From assembly GCA_050253335.1 (NCBI GenBank), contig JBFWJG010000014.1, positions 1 through 45,553 on the forward strand: a DNA stretch of 45,553 bases. The letters are read 5' to 3'. Below are positions 8,883 through 30,899 of the stretch, one piece after another. Each line of letters starts with the position of its first letter. The first letter of the stretch is position 1. The notes beneath the pieces are model-generated. The model was not told the DNA's origin. It worked only from the letters and a program-made list of their open reading frames with translations, and searched no databases. The position numbers and the translations under genes are program-made. The stretch comes from Deferribacterales bacterium. GTDB lineage: Bacteria; Chrysiogenota; Deferribacteres; Deferribacterales; Geovibrionaceae.

Positions 8883-8914
8883 GGCGGACATTTCCCTGTG
8901 TCCGCCGTTTTTTT
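8883..8914 (+). terminator. Rho-independent terminator of the fldA operon (preceded by a second hairpin at 8830-8854)
   Basis: GGCGGACA / TGTCCGCC stem, then G and T7. Confidence 0.85.
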
Positions 8915-8994: not shown

Positions 8995-9053
8995 TTGACA
9001 ATAGATTTTACTTATTATACTAGAAGACTATTATTTAGTTAGTTAATTCTAAA
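8995..9053 (+). promoter_or_regulatory. Putative promoter and operator of the TonB-receptor operon
   Basis: TTGACA at 8995-9000 and TATACT at 9016-9021 (short 15-nt spacer); TTAG-N6-CTAA at 9039-9052. Confidence 0.45.
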
Positions 9054-9119
9054 ATTGTTCTGAGGATCTCCGAGTCCCTTTTAGCTTATGCTTCACACTA
9101 TCTTTTGGAGGTTTTCTGA

Positions 9120-12100
9120 ATGAGGAAATTAATTACTCTTTTATCAGCCCTTTCCCTGTTTATCACAGCCGGATGCGGCGGAAGTTCCGGCGGCGGAAGC
9201 GGCGGCTCCGTTGACGACGGCGGAAGCGCAACCCGCACCATATCAGGCATAGTAACCGACCCTGCCATCAGAGGGGCACAGGTCGAGATAAGACAGCTCT
9301 CCGGTGATGCGCTTGTGAATATATGCGGAACCGCGGGCAATCTTCTCTGCCGCACATTCAGCAATGATGAGGGGGGATTTTCATTTATTGTTCCCTCTTC
9401 TTTCGACTTTTCACTTTACTATGTGCAGACGCACGGCGGAGTGGACACCGAAACAGGCATCAGCTTTGAATCAATAAGCCTGAGAGCACCTCTTAACGCA
9501 TTCAGCGGGAACGCAGAGGAGGTGGTTGTTTCACCCCTTACTTCACTTATCTCCTCAAACCTTTCCTCAGTGACCTCAAGGATGAGCCAAAGCGAGATCG
9601 AATCGGCAATAAGCGCGATAAGAGAATCGTTCGGCTTTTCAGCGGATACGGACATTCTCTCTGATCCTTCCCTTGAGCCTGAACTGCTCCACGCTTCTTA
9701 CCTGCTGGTTAAAATTGCTGCGCAGTATCGTGATTTCAGCGTCACTTACGGCGGCGGAGAGGAAAACCCCTTTGACGCCATTGTGAGAGCGGTTGAAAAC
9801 GGAGAGTTTGTAACCGAAGGCGGAGAGTTCACGGCGGGGGCGCTTGATCAGGTTTTTGCGGAGTTTACCTCCGCCCCGTCTTATGCTGAGGCTAAGCAGG
9901 AGCTTGAGGATACGCTGACTCTTCTCGCCGGACTCAGCGGAGAAGGCAATATCATCGAGGAACTTGTATCCGCCGAAAAAAGCTCGCTTTTCAGGAGAGC
10001 AGTCTCAAGTCTTATAACCAACCTGCCCGACAATGTTTCAGCCGTGTATATTGAGAATGTGGACAAGCTCCTCGAAGGGCTTGAAGAAACAGCGGAAACA
10101 TCTCTTTCTCTGGAAAGCTTCGGGATTTATCAGGCTGTGAGATTTGTTCTCTTCAGCGATGCTTTTTTTGAGGATTACAACAACTATATTTCATCAGATT
10201 TTGATACGGCTCTTGCATCCCTGCTTGCTGCGGACGGCTTTTCGGACGCCCTCGGAATAGTCATGAATGAGGGTGATGTTCATCTTGTCAATGTTCCCCT
10301 TGCCGCGGCAGACCTGCCCGGAGACAACAATACCCTCAGGGCAAACTACTATTTCAATTCAAGCATCGACAGGAATTATCTGGCAAGAAAACTCATCAGC
10401 AAGGTTTTTGATGATGAGATAAATGATGAGATTTATCTGGAAGTTATTTACTCCTATGCATCTTACGGAATGCTGGAGAAGGCAAAAAGAACCGCGGATG
10501 CCTTCCTTGTCAAATCTTTCAGCAAGGCGTCTGCCTACAGGTATATCGGCAAGTTCACCAGAGTTTACGGAACCGCAGATGCGGCTTACCTGCTGCTTAA
10601 ATCCGCGGAGGATATTGTATCTGCCGTCTACTCTGCAAGGGGTGACGGTGTGCTCACTTCTGACGAGGCGAATGAACTGATACTCTTATCAACGGAATAT
10701 GCTTTTTTAAACAAGCAGGATGAATCGCAGAGGCTGAAGGAATGGCTGGCTGCCGAAATTGCAAATATTACTAATGAAAGCACGAGAAAAACCGCTCACG
10801 GCCGTCTGCTTACCGCTCAGTGGCACGCTGCTGAGACTCTTGTTGACTCAAATGATTCCCGTGCCGAAGACGCAGTAGACTATTTTGTTGAGCTGATCGA
10901 GGGGCAGTATCCCAACACCACCCCCGGCAGGAGATACTCCATTCACCTTGTTTACTATGCGTATGCTTCAGAGATGTACAGAGCTCTGGGACTTGCGGAG
11001 AAGGTGAAGAATCTTTTTACTGAAAATATAGACCCTCTCAGGGTTCTGGATCAGGCGGAAGAAGGCGTTCAGTGGCAGCTCTATTATGACAGCATCCTCA
11101 GCGACCTTTACTGGAGCGGCGAAACCGAAGCGGCGGTCGCCGTTCTTGACACTCTTACGACAGCGTCCGCAATCAAAAGCACTGTCAAGGCAATTGCCGT
11201 AACAATGGCTTTTGAAGAAGGCTTTGAGGCTGCTTCGGAGTTTTTTGAAAGAAAAATACCTTTGGGGGATACTTTCTCCGCAATAGGCGATTACATGGAC
11301 TCATGGGTTTATCTCGGGGTGAACAAATCCAATCCCGGGGTAGCGCTGGCCGCAGTGGAAGCGGACAACGAAACCCTCGCCCTTCAGGCGCTTGATTACA
11401 TGGAAGGTAAACTTGATTCGCTGAAAGCATACATCGACAGCAACAGCATAAGCTACAACACATGGCTGACGATGACCGTTGCAGGCAACAGGGATGCGGA
11501 AGCAGGCTATGTGAAGCTGGCGGAAGTTTATATTGCGATGAACAACACTTCAAAAGCAGAGGAGCTTCTTCAGAAAGCGGAAGACTTCACTGATGCGGCA
11601 GCAGATTCCCTTAACAAGGCATACGGATATTCCAGAATCGGGATTGCTTACGATAAACTGAACAACGCCTCCAAGACTGCATCCCTTCTGGCGAAAGCGG
11701 GAACGGTAGCCACCGATAATTTTACTCCGGCGGTTTTTTACGCCTTCCATATCTGCATCGCGGATAATTATAACCTTCTGGGGGACAAAGCAAACATGGA
11801 ACTCAGCCTTGACGCTGCGGCGGGCTGGGCAGAAGATGTCCACACCGCAGGTACAGCGGACGATACCAACGCCACAGCGGAATCAAGCTATTTCAGAGCT
11901 CTGGCAATGAGGTACTACACCGTTCCTGATATTGAAAAAGCAAAAAATATGCTTCTGGCGGCGGAAAGCGTTTCTGCGGATATCGCGAGCGCTTCGAAAA
12001 GAACTACCGAAAGAAAAAGCATTGTTCTGGTATATGCCGCTCTCGGTCTTGTGGAACTTGCTTATGAGAAAGCCGCAGTGCTTCTTCCAACCGCTGCGGA

Positions 12101-12326
12101 CCGTAATGACTCCATACTGGATATTGCGGGGACTGTGACATTAGCCACTGATTTCCCGGCTTCAACAATTGCTTTTGTGGATACGGACAAGGACGGCAAG
12201 CCGGATTTCTTCCTGCCTTCGGCCTCTCCGGCGGAAATAGCCGCTTCCGGTCTTGAGCTTGACGATGATTCTGACGGCGATGGGAAGCCTGATGCCGCTG
12301 ACGCCACGCCGTTTTATGCGGATTAG
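9120..12326 (+). CDS. Large lipoprotein with helical-repeat body and C-terminal DxDxDG Ca-binding-type motifs
   Basis: Lipobox ITAG-C at residue 19, Gly/Ser linker, TPR-like Ala-rich helices, and DTDKDGKPD and DDDSDGDGKPD at the C-terminus. GGAGG RBS. Confidence 0.8.
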   Translation: MRKLITLLSALSLFITAGCGGSSGGGSGGSVDDGGSATRTISGIVTDPAIRGAQVEIRQLSGDALVNICGTAGNLLCRTFSNDEGGFSFIVPSSFDFSLYYVQTHGGVDTETGISFESISLRAPLNAFSGNAEEVVVSPLTSLISSNLSSVTSRMSQSEIESAISAIRESFGFSADTDILSDPSLEPELLHASYLLVKIAAQYRDFSVTYGGGEENPFDAIVRAVENGEFVTEGGEFTAGALDQVFAEFTSAPSYAEAKQELEDTLTLLAGLSGEGNIIEELVSAEKSSLFRRAVSSLITNLPDNVSAVYIENVDKLLEGLEETAETSLSLESFGIYQAVRFVLFSDAFFEDYNNYISSDFDTALASLLAADGFSDALGIVMNEGDVHLVNVPLAAADLPGDNNTLRANYYFNSSIDRNYLARKLISKVFDDEINDEIYLEVIYSYASYGMLEKAKRTADAFLVKSFSKASAYRYIGKFTRVYGTADAAYLLLKSAEDIVSAVYSARGDGVLTSDEANELILLSTEYAFLNKQDESQRLKEWLAAEIANITNESTRKTAHGRLLTAQWHAAETLVDSNDSRAEDAVDYFVELIEGQYPNTTPGRRYSIHLVYYAYASEMYRALGLAEKVKNLFTENIDPLRVLDQAEEGVQWQLYYDSILSDLYWSGETEAAVAVLDTLTTASAIKSTVKAIAVTMAFEEGFEAASEFFERKIPLGDTFSAIGDYMDSWVYLGVNKSNPGVALAAVEADNETLALQALDYMEGKLDSLKAYIDSNSISYNTWLTMTVAGNRDAEAGYVKLAEVYIAMNNTSKAEELLQKAEDFTDAAADSLNKAYGYSRIGIAYDKLNNASKTASLLAKAGTVATDNFTPAVFYAFHICIADNYNLLGDKANMELSLDAAAGWAEDVHTAGTADDTNATAESSYFRALAMRYYTVPDIEKAKNMLLAAESVSADIASASKRTTERKSIVLVYAALGLVELAYEKAAVLLPTAADRNDSILDIAGTVTLATDFPASTIAFVDTDKDGKPDFFLPSASPAEIAASGLELDDDSDGDGKPDAADATPFYAD

Positions 12327-12332
12327 CCTGCG

Positions 12333-14870
12333 ATGAGTAAGATGGCTAAAATCAGAAATATTATAAAGAGAGCCGCTTATGCGGCTCTCGCCTTTCAGTT
12401 TATCTGTTGCACAGCTTATGCGGCGGACAACATAAGCGATGCGGATGTATTTGTGCTTGATGATGTTGATGTTGTTGAATCATACAAAGAACTCAATAAA
12501 TCAGGCAGAACAGAGATTCCCCGTGAGTACATAGAAAACCTTCCGCAGGGCAACTCAAATATAACGGATCTGCTCCGGATGGCTCCTTCCGTCCAGTTCA
12601 GCGAATCTCACAGAAGCTCTTTGACCGGAGGGGAGATAGCTCCGGAGGAGATGTCCATTTCCGGCGGCAAGACATATCAGAACCTGTTCATGGTGGACGG
12701 AATAAACAACACGAGCATTCTGGATCCTGCCGGCTTCACCCCGTTCGGCAGTAACAGCTTAGGAGGACATTCCCAGAAGCTTTTTGTTAATTCGTCCATC
12801 GTTGACTCAATGACGCTTTACGACAGCAATATTCCTGCCTCATTCGGCGGATTCATGGGAGGGGTTGTAGATATAAAAACCAGGATGCCTGAGAAGGAGT
12901 TCGGCGGAAGCATATCATACCGTACAACCCGTTCAGAATGGGCGGAGATTTTTTTTGAAGGCACGCCGGAGGACAAGTATAAGTTCGAAAACTCCGGAGT
13001 TTATACAAAACAGCCTAAGTTTGAGAAGCATTTTTATGATTTGTCATTGGATGTTCCTGTTACGGATAACACGGGCTTCCTTGTTTTCTACAGCAGAAGC
13101 GAATCCACGATCCCGCTGAAGTCATTCGACAAATGGAAGGAACAGTGGAGAAAAAGCGAGAACCTGTTTATCAAAGGTGTTCATAATATTGACGGTTCAA
13201 GCTATCTGGAACTGACAACGTCATACTCCCCGTATGAGAGCAGATACCACCTGCCGGACACTATGAACAGCGAGCTGAACATAAAATCAGGCGGTTTGAG
13301 CGGAATCCTGAAGTATGTTCAGGAAGAGGGGGACAGCAGGCTGGTTTTGAGTCTGGATGCCTCCGCTACGGAAACCTCAAGAACTGCTCCGAACGAGTAT
13401 AAAAAATGGATCGCCAGCGGAAGCAAACCCTGGGGGTATCTGCTCGAACCGGATACTGACGACGACGGCAATCCTGACAATATTACAGCCGGAGTCAGTG
13501 CCGAGGGAGGCTTCGGAAGTCTTGAGCAGGAAGAGAATGCGGTTAACCTGAAGCTCGATCACACTGTAGGCCGGTTTAAGCTGAGCGGCGACCACGTTAT
13601 TTCTTACGGAGCCGTGTATTCTTATATTTCAGGCACTTATAACAGAAGTGAAAATGCGTATTCCTACATCGAAGGCCGACTGAACGCTGATGTCGTATGC
13701 AATGGCGATACGGGAACATGCGTTGACGGAGAGCAGTATTTTTATCAGCGAAGCATTACTCCTGCTTCTTATATCGAAGCCGAGATAAATGAATATCACT
13801 TTTATGCAGAAGATGACTGGGCGTTCGGGAAATTCAATTTCAGGGGCGGTGTCAGGGTGTCTTATGATGATTATATGAGCAATCTGAACGCGGCACCGAG
13901 AACCAGACTTAAATATGATGTTTTCGGAGATAATTCAACAACTCTCAGTGCGGGTTATAACAGGTATTACAGTTCAAATCTTCTGAAGAATAAGCTGCAG
14001 GAAGGGATGCTGCCCGAATATGATGAACGCAGAAGCACATACCTGAACGTTCTGCAGGAATGGGGGCCTTCAAGCGGAGGCACAGAAACGGTTTATAACT
14101 TTTCGGATCTGAAAACTCCGTATACGGATGAATACGCGGCGGCGGTTGATCAGGAATTTCTGGGCGGAATAGTGAGCCTTCAGTATATCGACAGAAGGGG
14201 AAAAGACGAGTTCGCCAATGAAAAAACCAAAACGCTGGCGGACGGATACAGCCACTATACCCTTAATAATAAAGGCAGGAGCAAGTACAGGACAGTTCAG
14301 CTGAAGTGGAACAGGTTCTGGAAAAACCACAGCCTCATGATGAATGCCATGTGGCAGGATGCATCAACATCAAACCACACCTACGATGAAGACGGACTTG
14401 AGGACATGGATGATGAAATACTCTACAAGGGCAGGCTCATCAAGCGCTATGACAAGCCTAAGAGCAACTACAACCGCCCCATTGTCGCCAATATAGCCTA
14501 CACAGGCAGATTTTTTGAAAGACTTGTTATTTCACCGGTTTTCAACTTCAGGGGAGCTTACAGAAAAATAGTTCTGGAGGATGAGGATTACTATGTCGGT
14601 CAGACCGGACAGACGGATCCCGTGACAGGGGAACCTATATACAAATATGTAAACAGATATGAAGAGGAAAAAATGAAAGCTTCCTATACTTTAGACTGCT
14701 CGGTATCCTGGGAGCAGCCGCTGAAGCGCAGGCAGAAGCTGACTGCAACCGTTGAAGTCACCAATGTTTTCAATGCGAAGAATGAAGCGGGTCAGAGCAG
14801 TTCCGACGAGAGAAAGAAGTATTACGAGATCGGCCGTCAGTTCTGGGCAGGGGTGGCTTATGAATTCTGA
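12333..14870 (+). CDS. TonB-dependent outer membrane receptor, YddB/FusA-like
   Basis: Signal peptide and TonB-box-like LDDVDV. The plug GEIAPEEMSISGGKTYQNLFMVDG..N resembles YddB/FusA. Also FGGFMGGVVD, a Cys pair in a loop, and C-terminal GRQFWAGVAYEF. Confidence 0.9.
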   Translation: MSKMAKIRNIIKRAAYAALAFQFICCTAYAADNISDADVFVLDDVDVVESYKELNKSGRTEIPREYIENLPQGNSNITDLLRMAPSVQFSESHRSSLTGGEIAPEEMSISGGKTYQNLFMVDGINNTSILDPAGFTPFGSNSLGGHSQKLFVNSSIVDSMTLYDSNIPASFGGFMGGVVDIKTRMPEKEFGGSISYRTTRSEWAEIFFEGTPEDKYKFENSGVYTKQPKFEKHFYDLSLDVPVTDNTGFLVFYSRSESTIPLKSFDKWKEQWRKSENLFIKGVHNIDGSSYLELTTSYSPYESRYHLPDTMNSELNIKSGGLSGILKYVQEEGDSRLVLSLDASATETSRTAPNEYKKWIASGSKPWGYLLEPDTDDDGNPDNITAGVSAEGGFGSLEQEENAVNLKLDHTVGRFKLSGDHVISYGAVYSYISGTYNRSENAYSYIEGRLNADVVCNGDTGTCVDGEQYFYQRSITPASYIEAEINEYHFYAEDDWAFGKFNFRGGVRVSYDDYMSNLNAAPRTRLKYDVFGDNSTTLSAGYNRYYSSNLLKNKLQEGMLPEYDERRSTYLNVLQEWGPSSGGTETVYNFSDLKTPYTDEYAAAVDQEFLGGIVSLQYIDRRGKDEFANEKTKTLADGYSHYTLNNKGRSKYRTVQLKWNRFWKNHSLMMNAMWQDASTSNHTYDEDGLEDMDDEILYKGRLIKRYDKPKSNYNRPIVANIAYTGRFFERLVISPVFNFRGAYRKIVLEDEDYYVGQTGQTDPVTGEPIYKYVNRYEEEKMKASYTLDCSVSWEQPLKRRQKLTATVEVTNVFNAKNEAGQSSSDERKKYYEIGRQFWAGVAYEF

Positions 14871-15753
14871 TAAGATCATAAGCATAGAGAACCTTGAACA
14901 CTCCTACGGGAAGAACAAAGTGCTCCACGGAATAAACTTCACCGTTGAAAAGGGGAAAACTTTCGGTCTCCTCGGCAAGAACGGCGCAGGGAAGACGACC
15001 ACCATCAACATAATGATGGGTTTTCTCGCACCGGACAAGGGGAAGTGCCTTGTTCTGGGTGAGGCTGCGCACAGTCTTTCACCGGAAGGAAAAAGGCGCA
15101 TAGGTCTACTGCATGAGGGGCATCTGTGCTACGAGTTCATGAGCATAGACCAGACGGAAAAGTTTTATAAAAGCTTTTATCCCCAATGGGATGCAGAAAT
15201 TTTTGACTATCTCGTGAAAAAGCTCGGCCTCAGGAGCGGGCACAAGATAAAGCATATGTCCTGCGGTCAGCGTTCTCAGGTGGCTCTGGCTGTTCTTATG
15301 GCGCAGAACGCGGATGTGCTGATACTGGATGATTTCTCCATGGGGCTTGATGCCGGCTACCGCAGACTGTTCCTTGATCATCTGAACTTCTATGTGAAGG
15401 AGAGAAAAAAGACAGTCCTTATAACATCCCACATTGTTCAGGATCTGGAAAGGTTTGTGGATGATGCGCTGATAATAGACAAGGGAAGGGTGCTGCGCTC
15501 CGCTCCGCTCAGCGAACTGAAAGACGGGCTCTACGGCTACAGGGTAAAATGCGCTCAGGATCTGAGCCCGCTGGAAAAAGAGGCGGAAATACGCGATGTT
15601 TCCCACACCAGCGCGGGCTATGAGATAATAGCGGACATTCCCCCTAAGGACGCTCCCGCTTACTTCGCTTCAAAAACCGGAGCGGATATTAATCCCGAAT
15701 ATTTTGACATAACTCTGGAAGACGCGTTCATCGCGCTTACCGGAAAGTATTAG
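14860..15753 (+). CDS. ABC transporter ATP-binding protein (atypical signature and Walker B)
   Basis: Walker A GKNGAGKTT, signature MSCGQ, Walker B LILDD, H-loop SH. ATG 14860 overlaps the receptor stop; the ORF track over-extends to 14752. Confidence 0.9.
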   Translation: MNSDKIISIENLEHSYGKNKVLHGINFTVEKGKTFGLLGKNGAGKTTTINIMMGFLAPDKGKCLVLGEAAHSLSPEGKRRIGLLHEGHLCYEFMSIDQTEKFYKSFYPQWDAEIFDYLVKKLGLRSGHKIKHMSCGQRSQVALAVLMAQNADVLILDDFSMGLDAGYRRLFLDHLNFYVKERKKTVLITSHIVQDLERFVDDALIIDKGRVLRSAPLSELKDGLYGYRVKCAQDLSPLEKEAEIRDVSHTSAGYEIIADIPPKDAPAYFASKTGADINPEYFDITLEDAFIALTGKY

Positions 15754-15763
15754 GTAATTTTCA

Positions 15764-16426
15764 ATGATTAGGCAGATCTGGATCAAAGAGTTCATTAAAC
15801 TGAATAAAGTTATTTTTGCCGTATTTCTGGCGAACGCCGGACTTGCGGTGTATTTCTGGCTGAGGCTGAGGGGCGGATTTTCCATGATGAATCCGGTCAT
15901 GATATGGTCGGATATAATCGACAAGCACAGCTTCTATTTCGGCAGGTTTGAGGTTCCTATCCTCGTTTCCGCCATAGCCTTGGGGATAATGCAGTTTTAC
16001 CCCGAGACAGAGAAGAAGCGCTTCCGCATATCCTGCCACCTTCCTTTGAACGAAAACGCCATGACGGCGGGGATGCTCTCCTTCGGAATTGTTGTTATCA
16101 GCGCTGTGTGGCTGTTTGATGCGGCCTCGGTTTACTTTGTTTCAAAAGCGTATTTCCCCTATGAAATATACTCGGAAGCACCCGTGATCATGCTCTACTG
16201 GTATCTGAAAGCGGTGGTGATATACATCTTTGTTTCCGCATTCACCCTTGAGCCTGTCTGGAAGCAGAAACTCAAGCTGGGCATAATGCTGGGAGCGTTC
16301 AGCGGTTTTTTCGCTGTTTCGGTCTACAACTCAGACAGAGGCGTGCTTCTCCTGTCCGTTATGTTTGCTGTGATGTTCGTTCCGGTGCTTTTCTATCCTG
16401 CGCTCAGATTCAGGAAGGGAGCGTAA
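15764..16426 (+). CDS. ABC-2-like membrane subunit
   Basis: N-terminal WIKEFIK, about 6 TM segments and HLPL; directly follows the ATPase. Confidence 0.7.
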   Translation: MIRQIWIKEFIKLNKVIFAVFLANAGLAVYFWLRLRGGFSMMNPVMIWSDIIDKHSFYFGRFEVPILVSAIALGIMQFYPETEKKRFRISCHLPLNENAMTAGMLSFGIVVISAVWLFDAASVYFVSKAYFPYEIYSEAPVIMLYWYLKAVVIYIFVSAFTLEPVWKQKLKLGIMLGAFSGFFAVSVYNSDRGVLLLSVMFAVMFVPVLFYPALRFRKGA

Positions 16427-16427
16427 G

Positions 16428-17684
16428 ATGAAGCTTTTATCAAGATACCTCCTCCTCATGGCCGCGGTGATTTCGTTCAGCAGCCTTATCCCTTTTCTCT
16501 ACACGGTAACGTTCGGAAAAAGGGCTGAAAGACCTGCAATCTTCTACAGCAAGGTGATTGAGGACATAGTCTACAGCCTTGAGGACAGGTCAGGCTCAAG
16601 AAAATATTATGACGGCGCAGGCAATGAATACAGCGCGCGTGAATACACAAAGCTTATCCCCTTCATACAGTTCAGGGATCTTCAGAAATGGGGTATGTAC
16701 CCCGAAACTGTGGGCGGCCAGCATGTCTCGGAGGAGCAGGCGGCCAATGACAGGGACTTTGTGAATATCCACTCCTACTGGATAGACGGGGACAAGGTGA
16801 GGGTCAAGCTTTACCCGCTCTTTGAAGCGGAGAGCGACTTCACAAAAATAGAGATGCCCGCGGAGCTCTTCCGCATAACGTCCCGAATGGAGTTTATAAA
16901 CGGTGTCAGAAACGCCGTTGATGAGGAGAAGAGCACGCTGTTTACAAACGCGCTCAGGGATGCGGGCTTTGTTTTCCCTGCGGGAATGATTGCCGGAAAC
17001 CCGACAACGAGAAAGTCATACGACTTCGGCTACTTTGTTCAGGACGGCGCGGGGGATGTTTTTCACCTTATGCAGGTTAAAGGACAGCCGTTCGTAAAGA
17101 GAACAGATATAAAACCGGACGGTGAGATTCTCTATATCAAAGTCGCGGAAAATCATTATCTGCCTTATTACGGCTTCCTGATAACCTCGGACGGCGGCGT
17201 CTACCACATAATGAAGGAAGACTACGGCCTCAAAAAGCTTCCCGTGGAGAACTACAGACCCCTTGAGCAGATGTTCAGATATGTGAAGGATCCGCTGAAC
17301 ATGACAGTGAAAATTGCTGATGAAAACGGCGAGCATGTCTATGTGGCTGATAAGAACTACGGGTTTGAAAAGAAGTTCTTCTACCCGTATGAAGGAAGAA
17401 TAAGGGGAGCATTCAGAGCGGTTTACGACACTGTGTTCCCTTTCAGGATAAATACAAAACATCCGGACAAGTACGGCAGCTATCTGAACATGGATTTCAG
17501 TGACAGACCGCACGCCGCATTTATATTTTCCGCAGTTCTGGCGGTGCTTTATGCGGCGTTCAGGATTTTCGGCGGAACAAGGAACAGAGAACTGCCTTTT
17601 GACACCGCGCTTGTTCTTGCGGGCGGGATTTATGCTGTTGCCGCATTGCTGCTTTTGGACGGATTCGGGAGGAATAAAATATGA
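16428..17684 (+). CDS. DUF4857-like membrane-anchored periplasmic protein
   Basis: N-terminal TM, large soluble domain (YPLFE, GNPTTRKSYDFGYF) and two C-terminal TMs. The family call is from memory. Confidence 0.65.
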   Translation: MKLLSRYLLLMAAVISFSSLIPFLYTVTFGKRAERPAIFYSKVIEDIVYSLEDRSGSRKYYDGAGNEYSAREYTKLIPFIQFRDLQKWGMYPETVGGQHVSEEQAANDRDFVNIHSYWIDGDKVRVKLYPLFEAESDFTKIEMPAELFRITSRMEFINGVRNAVDEEKSTLFTNALRDAGFVFPAGMIAGNPTTRKSYDFGYFVQDGAGDVFHLMQVKGQPFVKRTDIKPDGEILYIKVAENHYLPYYGFLITSDGGVYHIMKEDYGLKKLPVENYRPLEQMFRYVKDPLNMTVKIADENGEHVYVADKNYGFEKKFFYPYEGRIRGAFRAVYDTVFPFRINTKHPDKYGSYLNMDFSDRPHAAFIFSAVLAVLYAAFRIFGGTRNRELPFDTALVLAGGIYAVAALLLLDGFGRNKI

Positions 17685-22553: not shown

Positions 22554-25368
22554 AAACGTCCGCAGACTTATAACAGCGCTGGCCGCTGTTTTTGCGTGCG
22601 GGTTTCTGCTTAATTCTGCCGCATGGGCAGGAGTTGAGGAGAAGCTTCCTTTCAGCGATAAAATTATTTACGGCAAACTGGAAAACGGACTTCAGTACTA
22701 TATCAGGCAGAATGATCTGCCTATGGACAAGGCGGAGCTGCGTCTCAATGTCAGAACCGGCTCCCTGAACGAAACCGAGGCCGAGCGGGGCGTGGCTCAC
22801 TTTGTGGAGCATATGGCGTTTAACGGTACAAGAAACTTTAAAGGGAATGACCTCATTAAGTTCATGGAGGAACTGGGACTTACCTTCGGCCAGCATTCAA
22901 ACGCATACACCTCCTCCGAAAATACATACTACCAGCTCAGTGTTCCCGCGGAAAGGGATGAACTGATAGCTGATTCTTTTAAAATAATGCGTGACTGGGC
23001 GGACGGCATAACCTTTGATGAAAAAGAGATTGAAAGGGAAAAGGGCGTGATAACTGAGGAGTGGCGTATGCGCAATGATATGCGCAGCCGTATACGCAAT
23101 ATGTCGAGGGAATATCTTCTGGAGGGCTCGCTTTACCCTCAGAGAGACCCCATCGGGCTCATGGAGATCATAGCTTCGGCTGATAAAGCGCTTCTGAAAG
23201 GCTACTACGATAAATGGTACACCCCTGAGAATATGTCCGTCATAGTTGTGGGGAACATAGACCCCGAAAAGGCGGAAAAGCTCATCAAACAGAACTTTGC
23301 ATCTCTTAAAGCCAAGAAAACGCCCGAAAAGGCGGATACATCAGTCCCGTTTCAGGAAGGGCTGAGGGTGCGTACTATAACGGACCCCGAAGCGGCTTCT
23401 GTTTCGCTCTCCTACAACATTTTCAGCAGAGAAGGAAGGGTGGAAACCTATGAACACCTCAGGCGGAACGTGCTTGAAAGCGGTGCAATGAGTATGCTGA
23501 ACAAGCGTGTCGCCGCGAAGATACTTGAGAAGAGAAGCGAGCTCCTCTCTTTCCGTGCGGGGAAATCCGGCATGACGGACAGCCTTGCGCTCACAAGGTT
23601 TTCCATTATGACACGGCCTGAAACAATCGATTCGGACATAAAAGAGATGCTCACCGAAATTGAGCGTGTAAAGCGCTACGGCTTCAATGCGGATGAACTC
23701 AGGGAGTTTGTAACCTCGCAGAAAACTTATCTGGAGCGTGCGGCCAGTCCCGACTACAAATATCCGTCTGATAAATATGCGGATATGATAGCCCAGTACG
23801 ACACATTCGGCGGACACCTCACGGAGTTTACGCAGGATAAGGCGCTTCTGGACAGAATTTTCGGCGAGACGGACATCAAAGACTATAACGAAGCATTCAG
23901 CAGGCTTCTCCTGAGTGACAGCCGTATGGTTATTCTGACTATGCCTGAGCGGGATGCGGATAAAATATCCGTCACTGAGGAAAAATTCCTGAAAATCCTG
24001 TCTGAAGCGGAAAAAAGTGAAATCAAGGCGGAAGCCTCCGGCGGGATTCTGGATAAAATAATCAGCAAGGAGCCTGAGGGCGGAATAATAAAATCAAGGA
24101 AAAGCTTCGCCAATGTTGACGGAGAGCTTATCACCTACGGCAACGGCGTGCGCCTCTTCATAAAAAATAACCCTGTGGACAAAAACCGCTTTATGCTCAC
24201 AGCGAAGAAGCCCGGCGGTTTTTCAGTCATGGGGGACGAGGAAATACTCTACGCTGATTTCATGCAGAAAGCGCTGATTGCAAGCGGCTTTCAGGGTATC
24301 AGCAGAAGAGAGCTCCAGACATTCCTCGCAGGCAAAAGGGTGAACGCCGCACCGTCTGTCACAGGAAGCACATTTGACTTCGGCGGCGGCGGGGACAGCG
24401 AAGACATGGAAACCATGTTTCAGCTTATCTACAAATATCTCACAGCGCCGGACATAGACAGAAACGCGTTTGACGCGCTGATAAAATCAACGGCCAACTC
24501 GCTTGAAAACGCCGAGAAAGACAAAAAAACAGTCTTTTTCCGTGACGCGGCGGAGAAGATGCTTAACGACAATTACAGACGTGGATACCTCCTTGAGGCG
24601 GATCTGCCAGGCATCACCCCTGAAAAGCTGATGAAGATCTATAAAGCTTACTTCAGCGATATAAACAACTTCATTTTTGTGATCTCAGGCGATGTTGACA
24701 GAGAAAAAACAGCGGAGCTGGGGCGCAGATATCTGGGCGGTCTGCCTGCCGTGAACGTCAGAGCCGAAGCGGTTGACAGAGGCATCAGGCTGAAAGACAA
24801 GTACGGCACGGCGGAAGGGTTCGGTGATGTGGAAAACAGATCCACCGTGATGATCCGCTTCGATAAGGATGTGGAATACACCGCGAACGGCAGATACAGC
24901 ACATCGCTGTTAAGGCGTGTTCTCAACCAGAGGATGCGTGAGAACATCCGCGAGGATATGGGCGGGGTATACTCCGTCAGTGCTTTCATCAGCTACTCCG
25001 ACTATCCTGAAACTGTTTTCTCCGGCAGGGTTTCATTCACATGCGATCCCGCCCGCAGAGACGGCATAATTGAAGAAGTGCTCAGAATCATAAATGACAT
25101 AGCGGAAAACGGCATAACCTCAAAAGAACTTGAAACTGCGAAAAACCAGCAGAACGTTCAGTATGACGCATCGGGAGAAGATAACCGTTTCTGGGCGGGG
25201 ACGATTGTGTTTGACTTTATCCGCGATGAACCTGTTCTCTCTGTTGGTGAGCTGAAGGAGATAGTAAACGGAATAAGCCTCGAAAGCGTGAACGCTTTTG
25301 CGGCTGAATACATGAAGGATATGCGTATTTTCGCCGCATCGTACAATCCGGAGGCAAAAGTTGAATAG
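22534..25368 (+). CDS. pqqL: M16 family zinc metalloprotease, PqqL/FusC-like
   Basis: Signal peptide, GKLENGLQYYI, inverted zincin HFVEHMAFNGT, NAYTS, IEREKGVITEE and C-terminal IREDMGGVYS. Confidence 0.88.
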   Translation: MMIKTVKNVRRLITALAAVFACGFLLNSAAWAGVEEKLPFSDKIIYGKLENGLQYYIRQNDLPMDKAELRLNVRTGSLNETEAERGVAHFVEHMAFNGTRNFKGNDLIKFMEELGLTFGQHSNAYTSSENTYYQLSVPAERDELIADSFKIMRDWADGITFDEKEIEREKGVITEEWRMRNDMRSRIRNMSREYLLEGSLYPQRDPIGLMEIIASADKALLKGYYDKWYTPENMSVIVVGNIDPEKAEKLIKQNFASLKAKKTPEKADTSVPFQEGLRVRTITDPEAASVSLSYNIFSREGRVETYEHLRRNVLESGAMSMLNKRVAAKILEKRSELLSFRAGKSGMTDSLALTRFSIMTRPETIDSDIKEMLTEIERVKRYGFNADELREFVTSQKTYLERAASPDYKYPSDKYADMIAQYDTFGGHLTEFTQDKALLDRIFGETDIKDYNEAFSRLLLSDSRMVILTMPERDADKISVTEEKFLKILSEAEKSEIKAEASGGILDKIISKEPEGGIIKSRKSFANVDGELITYGNGVRLFIKNNPVDKNRFMLTAKKPGGFSVMGDEEILYADFMQKALIASGFQGISRRELQTFLAGKRVNAAPSVTGSTFDFGGGGDSEDMETMFQLIYKYLTAPDIDRNAFDALIKSTANSLENAEKDKKTVFFRDAAEKMLNDNYRRGYLLEADLPGITPEKLMKIYKAYFSDINNFIFVISGDVDREKTAELGRRYLGGLPAVNVRAEAVDRGIRLKDKYGTAEGFGDVENRSTVMIRFDKDVEYTANGRYSTSLLRRVLNQRMRENIREDMGGVYSVSAFISYSDYPETVFSGRVSFTCDPARRDGIIEEVLRIINDIAENGITSKELETAKNQQNVQYDASGEDNRFWAGTIVFDFIRDEPVLSVGELKEIVNGISLESVNAFAAEYMKDMRIFAASYNPEAKVE

Positions 25369-27175
25369 ACTTCTGCTTCTGATGCTTGCCCTCTGCCTGT
25401 GTTTTTCTCAGGCGGAGGCGGGGGTTACGAAAACCCACGGTTTCTCGCTCACTGACGGACTGAAATACGGCGCCGATTTCAGGCATTTTGAATATGTAAA
25501 CCCCAAGGCGCCCAAAGGGGGCACTCTGCGCAGGGCGATGTACGGCACTTTTGACAGCTTTAACCCGTTTGCGCCCAAGGGTGTTTCAATAAAGGCCACA
25601 GGCTATCTCCACGACAGCCTGATGACCTCCTCCGCTGATGAGTCCCTGAGTTATTACGGCCTCATAGCCGAAACCATGGAGTATCCGGACGACTATTCAT
25701 GGGCGATATTCAACCTCCGCCCCGAAGCGAAATGGAGCGACGGAACACCGCTCACTGCGGATGATGTTGTTTTCAGCTTTGAGAAAATCACGGAGGTCAG
25801 CCCGTTTTACCGCAATTACTATAATCTGATAACAAAGGCTGAGGCACTGGGAAAGCACAGGGTTAAGTTTCACTTCGCAAAAGAGAAAACCAGCCGCGAG
25901 CTTCCGCTCATAGCCGGTCAGCTTTCCATTATTCCCAAGCATTTCTGGCAGAAGAGGGATCTCTCCAAATCATCCCTTGAGATACCGCCTGTGAGCGGAG
26001 CATACAGAATCGCCTCCTTTGACGCGGGAAAAAGGGTAACCTTCGGGCGGGTCAGGGACTACTGGGGCGAGAAGCTTCCCGTGAACATTGGCCAGAATAA
26101 CTTCGACACCATTGTCTTTGAATATTTCAGGGATCAGACAGTAGCCTTTGAGGCCTTCAAGGCAGGGCACTTCGATTTCACGGCGGAAAGCTCCGGCCGC
26201 AGATGGTACAGGGGCTACACCGGAAAATATTTTGACATCGGGCTGATCAGAAAGGAAGAGATACCTCACAAAAACCCGCAGGGGATGAAAGGCATAGTAT
26301 TCAACACGGCACTTAAACCTCTGGATAATATACTTGTGCGCAAGGCGCTCAACTATGCCTACGATTACGACTGGATAAACAAAAACATCTATTTCGATCA
26401 GGATAAAAGGCACGACAGCTTCTTCTCAAACTCTGAACTCGCCTGCGGCGCAGTGCCTGCGGCGGATGTTGCGGCCGTGATAAAACAGGTTAAGCCTGAC
26501 GCGGGGGATGAACTGCTCAGGGCACGGTTCAGATTTCCCACGACGGACGGCAGCGGGAACAACAGGGAAAACCTGAAAACCGCTGTGCAGCTTTTCGAAC
26601 AGGCGGGCTACCGCATAGTGAACGGAAAAATGACCGGCAAGGACGGCAGGCCCCTTTATCTGGAGATAACCACATCCTCCAAAACCATCGAGAAGGAGCT
26701 GATGACCTTCAAAAAAGCCCTTGAGCGCATAGGCATAGACTTTTACATCAGGTACATGGACTCCACCCAGTTTGTGGATAAGGTGCGCGCGAAGGACTAC
26801 ATGATGATTTACACCGCAGTTAAGCAGTCCGAATCGCCGGGGAACGAACAGCGCAATATGTGGCACTCCGAAGCGGCGGACGAGGCGGGCAGCAGAAACT
26901 ACGCCCGCATAAAAGACCCCGCTGTGGACAGGCTTGTGGATATGATAATAAACGCGAAGGACAGAAAAAGCCTTGTGACATATTCCAAAGCGCTGGACAG
27001 GGTGCTTCTGAACGGATGGTATTTTATCCCCTCCGGCTATTCCGACAGATACCGGATCGCATACTGGGACAAGTTCGGCAAACCGGAAAAGATGCCCGAA
27101 TACAGTTTCGGCTTCGGCTCATGGTGGATAGAGCCTGAAAAAGAGAAAAAGATCGACAGTCTGATCAAAAGGTAA
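25361..27175 (+). CDS. yejA: Peptide ABC transporter substrate-binding protein, YejA-like
   Basis: HFEYVNPKAPKGG, GTFDSFNPF, DYWGEKLPVNIGQNNFD and YWDKFG; TTG start. Confidence 0.88.
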   Translation: MNRLLLLMLALCLCFSQAEAGVTKTHGFSLTDGLKYGADFRHFEYVNPKAPKGGTLRRAMYGTFDSFNPFAPKGVSIKATGYLHDSLMTSSADESLSYYGLIAETMEYPDDYSWAIFNLRPEAKWSDGTPLTADDVVFSFEKITEVSPFYRNYYNLITKAEALGKHRVKFHFAKEKTSRELPLIAGQLSIIPKHFWQKRDLSKSSLEIPPVSGAYRIASFDAGKRVTFGRVRDYWGEKLPVNIGQNNFDTIVFEYFRDQTVAFEAFKAGHFDFTAESSGRRWYRGYTGKYFDIGLIRKEEIPHKNPQGMKGIVFNTALKPLDNILVRKALNYAYDYDWINKNIYFDQDKRHDSFFSNSELACGAVPAADVAAVIKQVKPDAGDELLRARFRFPTTDGSGNNRENLKTAVQLFEQAGYRIVNGKMTGKDGRPLYLEITTSSKTIEKELMTFKKALERIGIDFYIRYMDSTQFVDKVRAKDYMMIYTAVKQSESPGNEQRNMWHSEAADEAGSRNYARIKDPAVDRLVDMIINAKDRKSLVTYSKALDRVLLNGWYFIPSGYSDRYRIAYWDKFGKPEKMPEYSFGFGSWWIEPEKEKKIDSLIKR

Positions 27176-28282
27176 ATGATGCTTCCGTATATTCTGAAGA
27201 GGCTGGTTCTCGTGATCCCCACTCTGCTGGGGATTGTCACCATAAACTTTTTTCTTGTGCAGATGGCTCCCGGCGGGCCTATGGAAACCATGATAGCCCG
27301 CATGACCGGAGAAGAGGTCACCGCGGAGCAGCGCGCCCTCCGGCAGGATGATGATTCCTCCGGCATGAACGCCCTCAGTGAGGACTCATCCGCTGCCGAA
27401 ATGTTCCGCGGCGGCGGCATATCCCCAGAGCTCATTGAAGACCTGAAAAAGCTCTACGGTTTCGACAGGCCGCTGCATGAGCGCTACCTCAAAATGCTGA
27501 AAGACTTTGTGATGTTCGAGTTCGGCGAGAGCTTTTTCCGTGATAAAAGCGTGATTGAACTGATAAAGGAAAAGCTCCCCGTTTCTGTTTCGCTGGGTGT
27601 GTGGACGACAATCCTTGTATATCTGATCAGCATTCCTCTGGGCATAAAAAAGGCTGTCCGCCACGGCAGCAGGTTTGATGTGTGGAGCTCTTTTGCCGTT
27701 ATAATGGGGAGCGCGATCCCCGTGTTCCTGTTTGCCGTTCTCCTCATAATCTTCTTCGCGGGGGGGAACTATTTTGCGTGGTTCCCGTTGAGGGGGCTTG
27801 TGTCCGACGGGTTCGCGGGTATGAGCCTGTGGGAGAAGCTTCTGGATTATCTTTGGCATATGTTCCTTCCCGTTGTTTCCATGCTGATAGGCGGTTTTGC
27901 CTCGCTCACCATGCTGACCAAAAACTCGTTTCTGGATGAAATTAACAGACAGTACGTAACCACCGCCAGAGCAAAGGGGTTGACGGAAAAGCGCATACTC
28001 TACGGCCATGTTTTCCGCAACTCCATGCTTATTGTTATCTCCGGCTTTCCAGCCGCGTTCATATCAATGTTTTTCACAGGCTCCCTTCTCATAGAGGTTA
28101 TATTCTCTCTGGACGGGCTGGGGCTCATGGGCTTTGAGGCCGCCATGAGCAGGGATTATCCTGTGATGTTTTCAACGCTTTACATCTTCACGCTCATGGG
28201 GCTTGTGCTGGGCATAATCAGTGATATTACATACACTCTGGTTGACCCGCGCATCTCCTTCAAAGCGGCGGACAGGGGGTAA
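27176..28282 (+). CDS. yejB: Peptide ABC transporter permease, YejB-like
   Basis: [25 protein letters not shown]-type loop TARAKGL and LVDPRI. Confidence 0.9.
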
Positions 28283-28284
28283 GG

Positions 28285-29316
28285 ATGAGGATTTCGCCCC
28301 TTACCGAACGGAGGCTCAGGCGTTTCCGCGGCAACAGGCGGGCATGGTATTCGCTTATCATGTTCTCCTTTCTGTTTCTGATGAGCCTCTGCGCGGAGAT
28401 AATAGCCAATGATAAACCCCTTGTAATGTCATACAGCGGAAAGCTGTATTTTCCGGTTCTGTTCACATACACAGAGAGCGAGTTCGGCGGTTTTTTCGAT
28501 ACCGAGGCGGACTACCGTGATCCGTTCATGCTGGAATCAATAGAGGAGAACGGCTGGGCAGTCTGGACACCGGTACGCTACAGCTACGACACCATAAATT
28601 ACGACACCGATACACCCCCGCCGACACCGCCGTCCCTTGCCAACCCTCTGGGGCTTGACGATCAGGGGAGAGATGTTTTCGCGAGGCTTCTTTACGGCTT
28701 CCGGCTTTCCGTACTGTTCGGGTTCATGCTCACGCTGGTCACATCCGTCATAGGTGTACTTGTGGGCGCTTTGCAGGGGTACTACGGCGGAAGGGTGGAT
28801 CTCTGGGGGCAGAGATTTATGGAGGTATGGTCGGGCATTCCCATGCTGTATCTGCTCATTCTTGCCAGCAGCATGATCCGTCCGGGGTTCTGGTGGCTGC
28901 TTCTTTTGATGTCAGTCTTCGGGTGGATGAGCCTTGTGGGCGTGGTGCGGGCTGAGTTCCTCAAAGGGCGCGAGCTTGAATATGTACAGGCGGCGCGTGT
29001 TCTCGGCGTGCGGGACTCGGTCATTATGTTCCGCCACATACTCCCTAATGCCCTTGTTGCCGCCATGACATTCCTGCCGTTCATACTCAGCGGCTCCATA
29101 GGCGTTCTCACATCGCTTGATTTCCTTGGTTTCGGCATGCCTCCGGGTTCGCCTTCCATAGGAGAACTGCTTGCGGCGGGCAAGTCGAACCTGCATGCCC
29201 CGTGGCTTGGTATTTCAGCTTTTGTGACGGTTTCGCTTATGCTGAGTCTGCTGGTTTTCATAGGGGAGGGGATGCGTGACGCTCTCGATCCCAGATACAC
29301 AGGTAACAGAAAATGA
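28285..29316 (+). CDS. yejE: Peptide ABC transporter permease, YejE-like
   Basis: AEIIANDKP, LGLDDQGRDVFARLLYGFR and GEGMRDALDP. Confidence 0.9.
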   Translation: MRISPLTERRLRRFRGNRRAWYSLIMFSFLFLMSLCAEIIANDKPLVMSYSGKLYFPVLFTYTESEFGGFFDTEADYRDPFMLESIEENGWAVWTPVRYSYDTINYDTDTPPPTPPSLANPLGLDDQGRDVFARLLYGFRLSVLFGFMLTLVTSVIGVLVGALQGYYGGRVDLWGQRFMEVWSGIPMLYLLILASSMIRPGFWWLLLLMSVFGWMSLVGVVRAEFLKGRELEYVQAARVLGVRDSVIMFRHILPNALVAAMTFLPFILSGSIGVLTSLDFLGFGMPPGSPSIGELLAAGKSNLHAPWLGISAFVTVSLMLSLLVFIGEGMRDALDPRYTGNRK

Positions 29317-30899
29317 CGGATAAACTCCTTGAAATAAAAAATCTGAAAGTAACATTCAATACGGAAGCGGGCAGGGTGGAGGCTGTAAAAAATTTCAGCT
29401 TTCACATGAACCATGGTGAGACACTGGCTGTGGTCGGTGAGTCCGGCTCAGGGAAATCTGTATGCGCTCAGAGCATAACAGGGTTGATTAAGCATGCCGG
29501 AGCGGTGATAGAAGACGGAAAGATAGTCTTTGGCGGCCTTGAACTCACCGACGCGGATGAAAACACCCTCCGCAGGGTCAGGGGCGGGGAGATAGGCTAT
29601 ATCTTTCAGGAGCCAATGGTTTCCCTTAACCCGCTGCATAATATAGAAAAACAGATAACCGAACGCCTCACTGCGGTGGAGGGGATGAACAGGGCGGATT
29701 CCGCACGGCGTGCTCTGGAGCTTCTGAACCTTGTCGGCATAAGAAACCCCGAAAAGCGTCTGGGCGACTTTCCGCACTGTTTTTCCGGCGGTGAAAGGCA
29801 GAGGATAATGATAGCCGCCGCTCTGGCCTCAAGCCCCAAACTGCTCATAGCCGATGAGCCCACAACCGCCCTTGATGTGACTGTGCAGAAACAGATTCTC
29901 GACCTTCTGGCGGAGCTTAAAGCCAAGCTGAACATGTCCGTTCTGCTGATTACCCATGACCTTGGCGTGGTGAGAGCCTACGCGGACAGAGTCGTGGTGG
30001 TCAAGAACGGGTACGTGGCGGAAGAGGGGAGCACGGAGAAAATTTTCCGCAGTCCAGAACACATATACACAGCGGAGCTTGTAAACCGGAGCGGCTTGAA
30101 AATCAGTGAACCCGTAACAGCGGGAGATGTTGTGCTGAGCGCCGAAAATCTCTCCGTGACCTATAAAGGCAGGGCAAAATTCGGCAAAAAGAACGATGTG
30201 GCGGCTGTGAAATCAGTCTCCTTCTGCGTGAGGGAAGGGCAGAGCCTCGGCATAGTGGGTGAGTCCGGCTCTGGCAAAACATCAATAATGAAGGCAGTTC
30301 TGCGGCTTATACCGTCTTCCGGCAGGGTAATGTTCATGGACGGGGAGTTTTCCGCCCTCAGTCCGGATGAACTGAGAGACAGAAGGCGGCATATTCAGGC
30401 TGTGTTTCAGGATCCTTTCGGCAGTCTCAACCCGAGGATGACCGTGGGGATGATAGTGGCCGAAGGGCTCACAGCCCGCGGAGAGAAGGATAAAAACAAA
30501 ATTGAGCAGTCCACCCGCAGGGCTCTGGAGGATGTCGGGCTGCCTCTTGATGTGATGAACCGCTATCCCCATGAGTTTTCAGGTGGTCAGCGCCAGAGGA
30601 TAGCCATTGCAAGGGCTATTATACTCCGCCCTAAGCTTGTTATTTTTGATGAACCTACCTCATCCCTCGACCGCAGTGTTCAGTTTCAGGTGATGGAGCT
30701 TCTGGCCGGTTTGCAGAAAACTTATAACATGTCATATATTTTCATCAGCCACGATCTGCATCTTGTCCGTTCTCTCTGCCACGAAGTAATAGTGATGAAG
30801 AACGGCGAAAAGGTTGAGGAAGGGCAGACAGAGGCTGTTCTGTCGGCTCCGGTGAATGAATACACAAGGACGCTGATTAACGCGGCATTTATGCAGTAA
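29313..30899 (+). CDS. yejF: Peptide ABC transporter double ATP-binding protein, YejF-like
   Basis: Two NBDs: GESGSGKS/FSGGE/LIADEPT and GESGSGKT/FSGGQ/IFDEPT. Confidence 0.9.
   Translation: MTDKLLEIKNLKVTFNTEAGRVEAVKNFSFHMNHGETLAVVGESGSGKSVCAQSITGLIKHAGAVIEDGKIVFGGLELTDADENTLRRVRGGEIGYIFQEPMVSLNPLHNIEKQITERLTAVEGMNRADSARRALELLNLVGIRNPEKRLGDFPHCFSGGERQRIMIAAALASSPKLLIADEPTTALDVTVQKQILDLLAELKAKLNMSVLLITHDLGVVRAYADRVVVVKNGYVAEEGSTEKIFRSPEHIYTAELVNRSGLKISEPVTAGDVVLSAENLSVTYKGRAKFGKKNDVAAVKSVSFCVREGQSLGIVGESGSGKTSIMKAVLRLIPSSGRVMFMDGEFSALSPDELRDRRRHIQAVFQDPFGSLNPRMTVGMIVAEGLTARGEKDKNKIEQSTRRALEDVGLPLDVMNRYPHEFSGGQRQRIAIARAIILRPKLVIFDEPTSSLDRSVQFQVMELLAGLQKTYNMSYIFISHDLHLVRSLCHEVIVMKNGEKVEEGQTEAVLSAPVNEYTRTLINAAFMQ

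Follow-up and report, generated by a model that had tools for sequence, protein, structure and literature searches.

A 16-gene operon-like cluster in Geovibrio with the parts of a probable enlarged FusA/PqqL-type protein import system

The DNA analyzed here (the window) is the forward strand of contig JBFWJG010000014.1 from a Deferribacterales genome (assembly GCA_050253335.1). It is 45,553 nucleotides (nt) long and is the whole of that contig; the genome is 2.58 Mb and 99.9% complete. The closest named proteins are those of Geovibrio ferrireducens and G. thiophilus, and judged from these the host is a Geovibrio (Deferribacterota), neither a vibrio nor an enterobacterium. The listing of open reading frames (ORFs) for the window gave 16 intact plus-strand genes between positions 9120 and 30899, and these genes are the subject of this report. 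The cluster is a real, conserved, operon-like system, and from the families of its proteins it is best read as a larger variant of the Fus and YddB-PqqL protease-associated import systems. Its genes, with the evidence for each in parentheses, are as follows (aa, amino acids; ABC, ATP-binding cassette; TPR, tetratricopeptide repeat).

9120..12326, plus strand: gene 1, a 1068-aa lipoprotein (lipobox ITAGC and a Gly/Ser linker)
12333..14870, plus strand: gene 2, a FusA/YddB-clade TonB-dependent receptor of 845 aa with a signal peptide (PDB sequence search, Plug domain)
14860..15753, plus strand: gene 3, an ABC-2-type ATPase, 297 aa from ATG 14860 (ABC_tran, 4e-22)
15764..16426, plus strand: gene 4, a 220-aa membrane protein with 4 to 5 hydrophobic segments (hydropathy)
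16428..17684, plus strand: gene 5, a DUF4857 protein (Pfam DUF4857, 2e-79)
17681..18430, plus strand: gene 6, a DUF3450 protein of the TtpB type (Pfam, 5e-46)
18427..19785, plus strand: gene 7, a TtpC-type long MotA/TolQ/ExbB protein of 452 aa (C-terminal MotA_ExbB, 2.5e-30; coiled-coil, DUF3450-like N terminus)
19782..20327, plus strand: gene 8, ExbB (Pfam, NCBIfam)
20315..20722, plus strand: gene 9, ExbD (9e-32)
20719..21396, plus strand: gene 10, TonB, with a single transmembrane helix (TonB_C, 1.2e-20)
21396..22553, plus strand: gene 11, a secreted TPR protein of the TtpD type (TPR families, signal peptide)
22534..25368, plus strand: gene 12, a periplasmic PqqL/FusC-type M16 metalloprotease of 944 aa (signal peptide; HFVEH at residue 89)
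25361..27175, plus strand: gene 13, a YejA-type periplasmic binding protein (SBP_bac_5; structure matches)
27176..29316, plus strand: genes 14 and 15, the YejB and YejE permeases (NCBIfam)
29313..30899, plus strand: gene 16, a YejF-type double ATPase (NCBIfam, best model YejF)

This ORF order and these domain assignments bear out the genes and gene order given in a first-pass annotation of the same DNA. The annotation had also stated that every junction is overlapping or at most 10 nt wide, and all 15 computed distances obey this rule; from gene 1 to gene 16 they are +6, -11, +10, +1, -4, -4, -4, -13, -4, -1, -20, -8, 0, +2, and -4 nt. The distances were calculated from the most plausible start codons, ATG 14860 for the ABC ATPase and GTG 20719 for TonB (the longest ORF of gene 10 runs from 20668, and GTG 20719 is probably the start). 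Gaps of 297 nt upstream and 186 nt downstream, the latter AT rich, flank the cluster. No strong terminator was found between genes, as the annotation had likewise supposed: terminator-like hairpins inside the cluster on the plus strand were weak, and all of them lay within coding sequence. On both strands together there were 35 terminator-like sites, compared with 19.8 expected from shuffled sequences, and most had 3 G-C pairs; promoter-like matches numbered 14, compared with 16.4 in shuffled sequence, i.e., they were not enriched. Because every large ORF on the 45.5-kb contig is on the plus strand, co-orientation alone is not special. It is tight spacing and conserved synteny, not orientation, that lift the cluster above chance.

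We determined how the main components are distributed among 68 genomes of the phylum. The receptor was present in 20 genomes (E ≤ 1e-10), belonging to 9 of 23 genera. The M16 protease was present in 19 (E ≤ 1e-60), all 19 of them receptor positive. A family search found DUF4857 in 21 genomes: the 20 with a receptor and one more, G040, which is 86% complete and has its DUF4857 match at a contig end. These counts include related genomes and are therefore not counts of independent events. The pattern of receptor, M16, and DUF4857 splits inside genera (2 of 3, 1 of 4, and 5 of 13 genomes), and a complete genome of the window's genus (G028) is without all three. The within-genus splits therefore indicate repeated joint gain or loss of these genes.

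Gene order was compared, by tblastn and ORF maps, in the corresponding regions of 10 of the 19 other receptor-positive genomes. Three of these have the full 16-gene order: G. thiophilus (G029), G. ferrireducens (G027), and a member of a second genus (G023), the proteins of which are 28% to 78% identical to those of the window. Another five, all from another family, have a 13-gene form consisting of gene 1, receptor, ABC ATPase, permease, DUF4857, ExbB, ExbD, TonB, M16, and YejABEF (ExbB, ExbD, and TonB are Pfam confirmed in one of the five, G047). One contig stops after the permease, and the region from the remaining genome, G001, has gene 1, the receptor, and the ABC ATPase only. The linkage of receptor and M16 is thus kept in 8 of the 10.

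We also scanned metagenomes with the receptor alignment, which yielded 75 loci, and profiled the 32 with the longest matches. Contig L030 has the 13-gene order up to the contig end. In L028, gene 1, the receptor, and the ABC ATPase are followed by the contig end, and in L029, gene 1 and the receptor are followed by 4.5 kb with no more profile matches. Four loci, with 31% receptor identity, have the classic order of TonB, FusA, M16, and ABC ATPase. The other 25 of the 32 gave profile matches to the receptor only, some with a weak TonB match or an unrelated permease match elsewhere on the contig. As read from these gene orders, the conserved core is the lipoprotein, a FusA-type receptor, the ABC-DUF4857 trio, a TonB motor in one or the other form, M16, and YejABEF. 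The joint conservation that the first-pass annotation expected was thus found, the genes being kept together across genera and across families.

The same data bear on the possibility that the 16 genes are merely independent neighbors, i.e., a TonB motor, a receptor with an exporter-type ABC transporter, a housekeeping M16 protease, and a general peptide permease. That all contig genes are on one strand would agree with this possibility, as would a related locus (L007, described below) in which the motor is kept without the rest. A further point in its favor is that the region's top promoter-like match lies just upstream of ttpB (17500-17527; GTGACA-16 nt-TATATT, 10/12). This site falls within the 3' end of gene 5, some 150 nt ahead of ttpB and in the part kept by L007, and could act as an internal promoter of the motor genes. 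However, as given above, promoter-like matches in the region are no commoner than in shuffled sequence (14 versus 16.4). In addition, the receptor, M16, and DUF4857 have been gained and lost together among the 68 genomes, and gene order is kept across families at 30% to 60% identity even with a differing motor type. We consider an assembly of independent neighbors very unlikely.

Locus L007 came from a scan of genome contigs with TtpC, which found two loci; it is from a Deferribacterales metagenome-assembled genome, the closest named relative in that scan, and its shared proteins are about 84% identical to those of the window. L007 aligns with window positions 7863-9059, then 17419-22556, and then 38960 onward, so that it is without two blocks, 9060-17418 and 22557-38959. 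The first block comprises gene 1 through most of gene 5, of which a 132-aa C-terminal DUF4857 remnant is left. The second comprises M16, YejABEF, a 140-aa ORF, and a Nar-like operon with a major facilitator superfamily (MFS) gene. The six motor genes are retained, as are the cluster promoter and part of the leader. The motor also varies in the other direction: in another family, a plain ExbB-ExbD-TonB set replaces the six-gene motor. The window's genome has two Plug-domain receptors, three TonB_C matches, and two ExbD-family loci; the second receptor, on contig C34, is a standard barrel, and the motor probably serves it as well. The first-pass annotation had given the system "its own motor," and in view of these findings that description was overstated.

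When the receptor was searched against 177,635 PDB sequences, it matched FusA (4zgv; E = 4.1e-103, residues 44-844) and YddB (6ofr; 1.2e-63), and no other receptor was matched at E < 1. The call of a FusA/YddB-like receptor therefore stands, there being no siderophore or B12 receptor among the PDB matches at that threshold. Identity to the FusA-type receptors of Pectobacterium, Erwinia, and Brenneria is 29% to 32% over 95% of the length. Among the names given for 71 receptor matches there was no Vibrio protein. The protease gave full-length PDB matches to 9ldy (1.3e-107), PqqL (6ofs; 2.6e-89), and FusC (6b03; 1e-48), and these matches, together with the intact HxxEH motif, likewise uphold its assignment as FusC/PqqL-like. 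We found no publication for 9ldy, the best match. In all four genomes of one genus (G045 to G048), there is a second PqqL-like M16 gene on another contig, about 50% identical to that of the window (e.g., G047:C29:20961-23684).

Gene 1, immediately upstream of the receptor gene, encodes a protein without a Pfam or NCBIfam family; Pfam gave a weak TPR match alone. Its N-terminal region contains LFITAGC followed by GGSSGGGSGGS, and Cys19 is invariant in 14 homologues. An AlphaFold2 (AF2) model (predicted local distance difference test score [pLDDT] of 86, predicted template modeling score of 0.76) has a beta-sandwich at the N terminus, an Asp-rich Ca-type motif at the C terminus, and, between them, a TPR-like alpha-solenoid of about 900 aa. 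When this model was used in Foldseek, only generic TPR solenoids were returned, with template modeling scores of <0.33, and no SusD or RagB was listed. A profile search returned 237 representatives at E ≤ 1e-30, mostly full length, and by this measure gene 1 belongs to a real but unnamed protein family. In SusCD and RagAB pairs, the gene for a helical-repeat lipoprotein adjoins the gene for a TonB-dependent transporter, and RagAB is a peptide importer. Gene 1 differs in being about twice as large, and the window's receptor is of the FusA clade, not the SusC clade. A complex prediction with receptor residues 44-845 and gene 1 residues 36-230 scored 0.00, which counts neither for nor against pairing.

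Gene 1 and the receptor diverge faster than the rest of the cluster. They are 57% and 59% identical, respectively, to their G. ferrireducens counterparts, whereas the other 14 proteins are 88% to 100% identical; compared with G. thiophilus, gene 1 is 82% and the receptor 71% identical. Within gene 1, the N-terminal 440 residues are 70% to 90% identical to those of G. ferrireducens, and identity drops to 17% to 45% over residues ~480 to 1000. Such fast divergence is consistent with a capture surface that is exposed and either under diversifying pressure or subject to allele exchange. A perfect 9-bp stem with 7 G-C pairs (12368-12389), reported by the scan on the minus strand, lies near the start of the receptor gene; placed at the junction of genes 1 and 2, it could set differing levels of lipoprotein and receptor.

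Genes 13 to 16 encode a predicted peptide importer of the YejABEF type. Gene 13 matched PDB entry 7z8e (2.7e-133), E. coli YejA (~1e-118), and MbnE (1.2e-106). The permeases scored above their model cut-offs (YejB, 549.6 bits with a cut-off of 445; YejE type, 496.8 bits with a cut-off of 439), and gene 16 scored 623.6 bits with the YejF model, below the cut-off of 834. MbnE binds the copper peptide methanobactin, and M16 chambers favor short substrates. The strong similarity of the window's YejA to MbnE thus speaks for a reading in which the cargo would be a small peptidic metallophore or siderophore that the M16 protease opens, freeing the metal, with the YejA relative binding the metal-peptide. 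This reading is also close to one proposed by Rodionov et al. in 2004, that a Desulfovibrio pqqL cluster serves siderophore transport (PMC545781). Nevertheless, the only clade that the receptor matches, FusA/YddB, is one that imports proteins; the TPR solenoid of the 1068-aa lipoprotein is a scaffold of a kind that binds proteins; and the window contains no biosynthetic genes for such a compound. A metallophore as cargo therefore seems to us quite unlikely.

Genes 6 to 11 have the same six-gene composition and order, TtpB-TtpC-ExbB-ExbD-TonB-TtpD, as the Vibrio TonB2 and TonB3 systems, a likeness that is one of motors; TtpB2 and TtpD2 of Vibrio TonB2 are described as a DUF3450 protein and a TPR protein, respectively (PMC6957404).

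Genes 3 to 5 form the ABC-DUF4857 trio. The nearest NCBIfam models for gene 3 are PmtA, DrrA, and GldA, all below their cut-offs; its Walker B motif is LILDDF, in which Asp replaces the catalytic Glu, and its signature is SCGQR. Gene 4 had no family in the Pfam or NCBIfam scans and is presumed to be the permease partner of gene 3; in L030 and in 8 of the 10 genomes compared, it is kept as the neighbor of genes 3 and 5. The gene 5 protein, 95% identical to the DUF4857 protein of G. ferrireducens, has one N-terminal transmembrane helix, a beta-rich periplasmic domain of about 330 aa, and two C-terminal transmembrane helices. Its AF2 model (pLDDT, 81) gave a best Z score of 8.4 in a fold search, to WD40-type propeller blades, which is borderline only. 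Among 14 control genomes, DUF4857 was found in Bacteroides thetaiotaomicron only. There, the BT3625-BT3633 locus is described as having DUF4857, a hypothetical protein, and an ABC ATPase beside a TonB-dependent receptor (PMC10434189), and the window has the same module composition: DUF4857 and an ABC ATPase, with a small membrane protein, next to such a receptor. BT3625-BT3633 differs in including PepSY, DUF4876, and fimbrillin genes, and no M16 or Yej genes are among those the paper lists for it. We regard the ABC-DUF4857 trio and gene 1 as the most interesting part of the cluster.

Compared as a whole, the cluster shares with the Fus system of Pectobacterium a FusA-clade receptor, a FusC/PqqL-type M16 protease, and a TonB gene inside the cluster; the dedicated TonB-like protein of Fus is FusB (PMC7593965). 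Fus has 4 genes, whereas there are 16 here. The FusD-type SbmA/BacA-like ABC protein was not found, and the additions are the 1068-aa lipoprotein, the ABC-2/DUF4857 trio, TtpB-TtpC-ExbB-ExbD-TtpD, and YejABEF. The host is also different, being an anaerobic member of the Deferribacterota, and receptor identity is only about 30%. In E. coli yddA-yddB-pqqL, YddB and PqqL are homologous to the window's receptor and protease, but that locus has three genes, with YddA a fused ABC protein, and is without a motor, a lipoprotein, or Yej genes. Grinter et al., in their survey of FusA homologues, describe "protease-associated import systems" with variable accessory genes, and their supplementary table has Vibrio entries with simple A/D/C or A/C/D operons (PMC6793856). 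The two defining features of such systems (a FusA-clade receptor and a linked FusC/PqqL-type M16 protease), and a TonB gene as well, are present in both the 16- and the 13-gene forms.

We found no publication that describes or tests the extended architecture. The nearest prior mention is the foxR-pqqL-atpX cluster of Desulfovibrio, for which Rodionov et al. report the Zn peptidase gene pqqL in first place and at least 10 ABC, exbB, exbD, and tonB genes (PMC545781). That cluster is an in silico prediction only, with a peptidase-first order, and we liken it to the window by the gene names in the paper. The first-pass annotation knew of no characterized system with this architecture, and we found none either; the architecture had, however, been noticed in part, in silico, in 2004.

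From the homologies, export signals, operon-like spacing, conserved synteny, and co-occurrence that we observed, we infer a sequence of functional steps, a substrate, and a mode of regulation. At the cell surface, the lipid-anchored TPR solenoid of gene 1 would capture a polypeptide or protein and hand it to the gene 2 receptor. TonB (gene 10) would open the receptor, with energy from the TonB2-type set of TtpB, TtpC, ExbB, ExbD, and TtpD. In the periplasm, the PqqL/FusC-type M16 protease would cut the cargo; YejA would bind the resulting peptides, which possibly bear metal, and YejBEF would import them. Genes 3 to 5 may form an inner-membrane machine with a large periplasmic domain that handles a released cofactor or helps in extraction; of all the steps, this one is the least certain. 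Iron from a small metalloprotein would be the likeliest gain, with amino acids as a by-product or as the alternative. We regard such a route of capture, import, digestion, and absorption as moderately likely. Of the earlier interpretation, the receptor and protease families and the joint conservation are upheld; its private motor and its flavodoxin argument are not, and a canonical Fur box was not found upstream.

Several observations weigh against this interpretation, or against iron as its object. A single receptor-positive genome, G001, has no M16 protease at E ≤ 1e-60. In L007, the motor has outlasted the other cluster genes. None of the 16 proteins had a Pfam match to the SbmA/BacA-type (FusD/YddA) family. 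ABC-2-type ATPases are usually exporters. The Desulfovibrio homology rests on gene names, not on compared sequences. No match of ≥12/19 to a classical Fur box was present in either 8823-9119 or 7851-7963, and no match of ≥12/17 to the delta-proteobacterial Fur consensus was present in the same two regions; these are the classical and delta-proteobacterial consensus sequences and may differ from the motif of the Deferribacterota. The flavodoxin gene upstream has its own promoter-like site and terminator and adjoins the cluster only within Geovibrio. The first-pass annotation had taken the neighboring flavodoxin operon as a sign of iron scavenging, and that argument is weak, the flavodoxin operon being a separate transcription unit with a genus-limited adjacency. 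Finally, the Vibrio TonB3 system, which is headed by a receptor gene and has a motor similar to this one, is reported to be neither iron regulated nor used for iron (PMC6957404); if TonB3 is related to the cluster, this argues against a role in iron uptake.

Regulation of TonB3 also bears on the alternative that the same hardware serves feeding, proteins or polypeptides being taken up as a source of amino acids (for carbon or nitrogen) with no special link to a metal. TonB3, which has the same motor type, is reported not to be iron regulated and to be induced in glycerol minimal medium with low casamino acids (PMC6957404), and a tonB3 mutant of V. parahaemolyticus is described as reaching lower density on E. 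coli lysate (bioRxiv 10.1101/2025.06.27.661923). Feeding would also agree with the complete YejABEF in every full version of the cluster and with the lack of a canonical Fur box in the upstream regions scanned. On the other side, homology of the TonB3 loci to the window's cluster is conjectural, and DUF4857-ABC modules and the Desulfovibrio pqqL cluster are linked to iron in the literature. BT3625-33 (DUF4857, an ABC ATPase, and a TonB-dependent receptor) is reported to be induced 37- to 128-fold by iron depletion (PMC10434189). FUR boxes are reported to precede the Desulfovibrio pqqL-ABC-exbB-exbD-tonB cluster, and also fld (Rodionov et al. 2004, PMC545781). The characterized relative of the receptor, FusA, imports ferredoxin, from which iron is then taken (PMC6793856). 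In addition, a single receptor with a narrow, fast-diverging capture protein suits a specific ligand better than bulk feeding. A plasmid of Vibrio pelagius has a FusA-like receptor beside M16, a transporter, ExbB, ExbD, TonB, and FhuF. Given these points, we think that feeding without a metal link is rather unlikely, and we put forward iron as the main prize only as a tentative possibility.

To our knowledge, Fus is the only studied case of uptake of whole proteins across the outer membrane. The cluster, read as an enlarged import route, would be a fuller version, intact across Deferribacterota genera, whose added parts are a capture lipoprotein, an ABC machine that faces the periplasm, and an importer of peptides. 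It places two uncharacterized families, that of gene 1 and DUF4857, in a pathway that can be tested, and G. ferrireducens and G. thiophilus are cultured hosts, not pathogenic, for testing it. The cluster also suggests where to look for the role of TonB3-type systems in vibrios; were the Vibrio TonB3 and Desulfovibrio pqqL loci the same system, TonB3 would gain its long-missing function. In a bolder version, which we hold to be doubtful, the cluster would be complete in itself as a machine that consumes one specific protein, and two of its parts would be known from no uptake system studied so far: a giant surface TPR solenoid and an ATP-driven inner-membrane machine acting in the periplasm. The hypervariable C-terminal half of gene 1 would then set which foreign protein is captured, and genes 3 to 5 would, for example, strip or unfold the imported protein for M16 or pass on its metal.

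The gap upstream of gene 1 contains the following features.

8883..8914, plus strand: strong intrinsic terminator of the upstream flavodoxin-DUF2023 unit (9-bp stem at 8883-8906 with 6 G-C pairs, then the T run GTTTTTTTAT)
8995..9021, plus strand: promoter-like site of the cluster, TTGACA...TATACT (kept in G. thiophilus, G. ferrireducens, and L007)
9062..9119, plus strand: 5' leader of gene 1 with the conserved element GAGGATCTCCGAGTCCC at 9062-9078 (predicted to base-pair with the gene 1 start codon and ribosome-binding site)

The terminator is conserved in G. thiophilus (G029), G. ferrireducens (G027), and L007. A consensus promoter scan gave 9007-9034, which overlaps the promoter-like site at 8995-9021. 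An Rfam search over 7700-31600 gave nothing relevant, the sole match being a chance snoRNA (E = 0.62).

Three Geovibrio genomes and G023 have kept the 17-nt element GAGGATCTCCGAGTCCC; the rest of the leader in G023 is unrelated. The leader hairpin has a folding energy of -21.2 kcal/mol in the window (z = -2.07; 8 of 200 shuffles were equally good). In G023, its z is -2.98, and 1 of 200 shuffles was equally good; the pairing is predicted by folding, without covariation. The coordinates of the counterpart in L013 are 1670-1751. The element at 9062-9078 may be a translational switch, as predicted from this pairing. The L007 deletion begins right before the leader element, at 9059/9060.

We also considered an operator shared with the feo genes. 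The 11-mer ATTCTAAAATT is present upstream of gene 1 (9046-9056) and in a feoA-feoA intergenic region on contig C9, where two divergent feoA-feoB pairs (39714-45035) have a common 282-nt intergenic region that holds it. This evidence was too thin for a regulon. A 12-mer around ATTCTAAAATT, allowing ≤1 mismatch, had only 11 distinct sites genome-wide, mostly inside genes, and because the sites are few and most are inside genes, the regulon was rejected.

Downstream of the cluster, the 140-aa ORF and the Nar-like molybdopterin oxidoreductase operon (31505-38973) are preceded by a gap that contains TTGATCAATGTCAA at 31013-31026, which we take to be an FNR/CRP-type inverted repeat. Upstream, positions 3-8822 encode a molybdopterin oxidoreductase, a 4Fe-4S protein, a radical S-adenosylmethionine protein, a NarJ-like chaperone, a second Fe-S protein, and an MFS protein, followed by the flavodoxin and DUF2023 proteins. 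This upstream block is syntenic in G029, G027, and L007.

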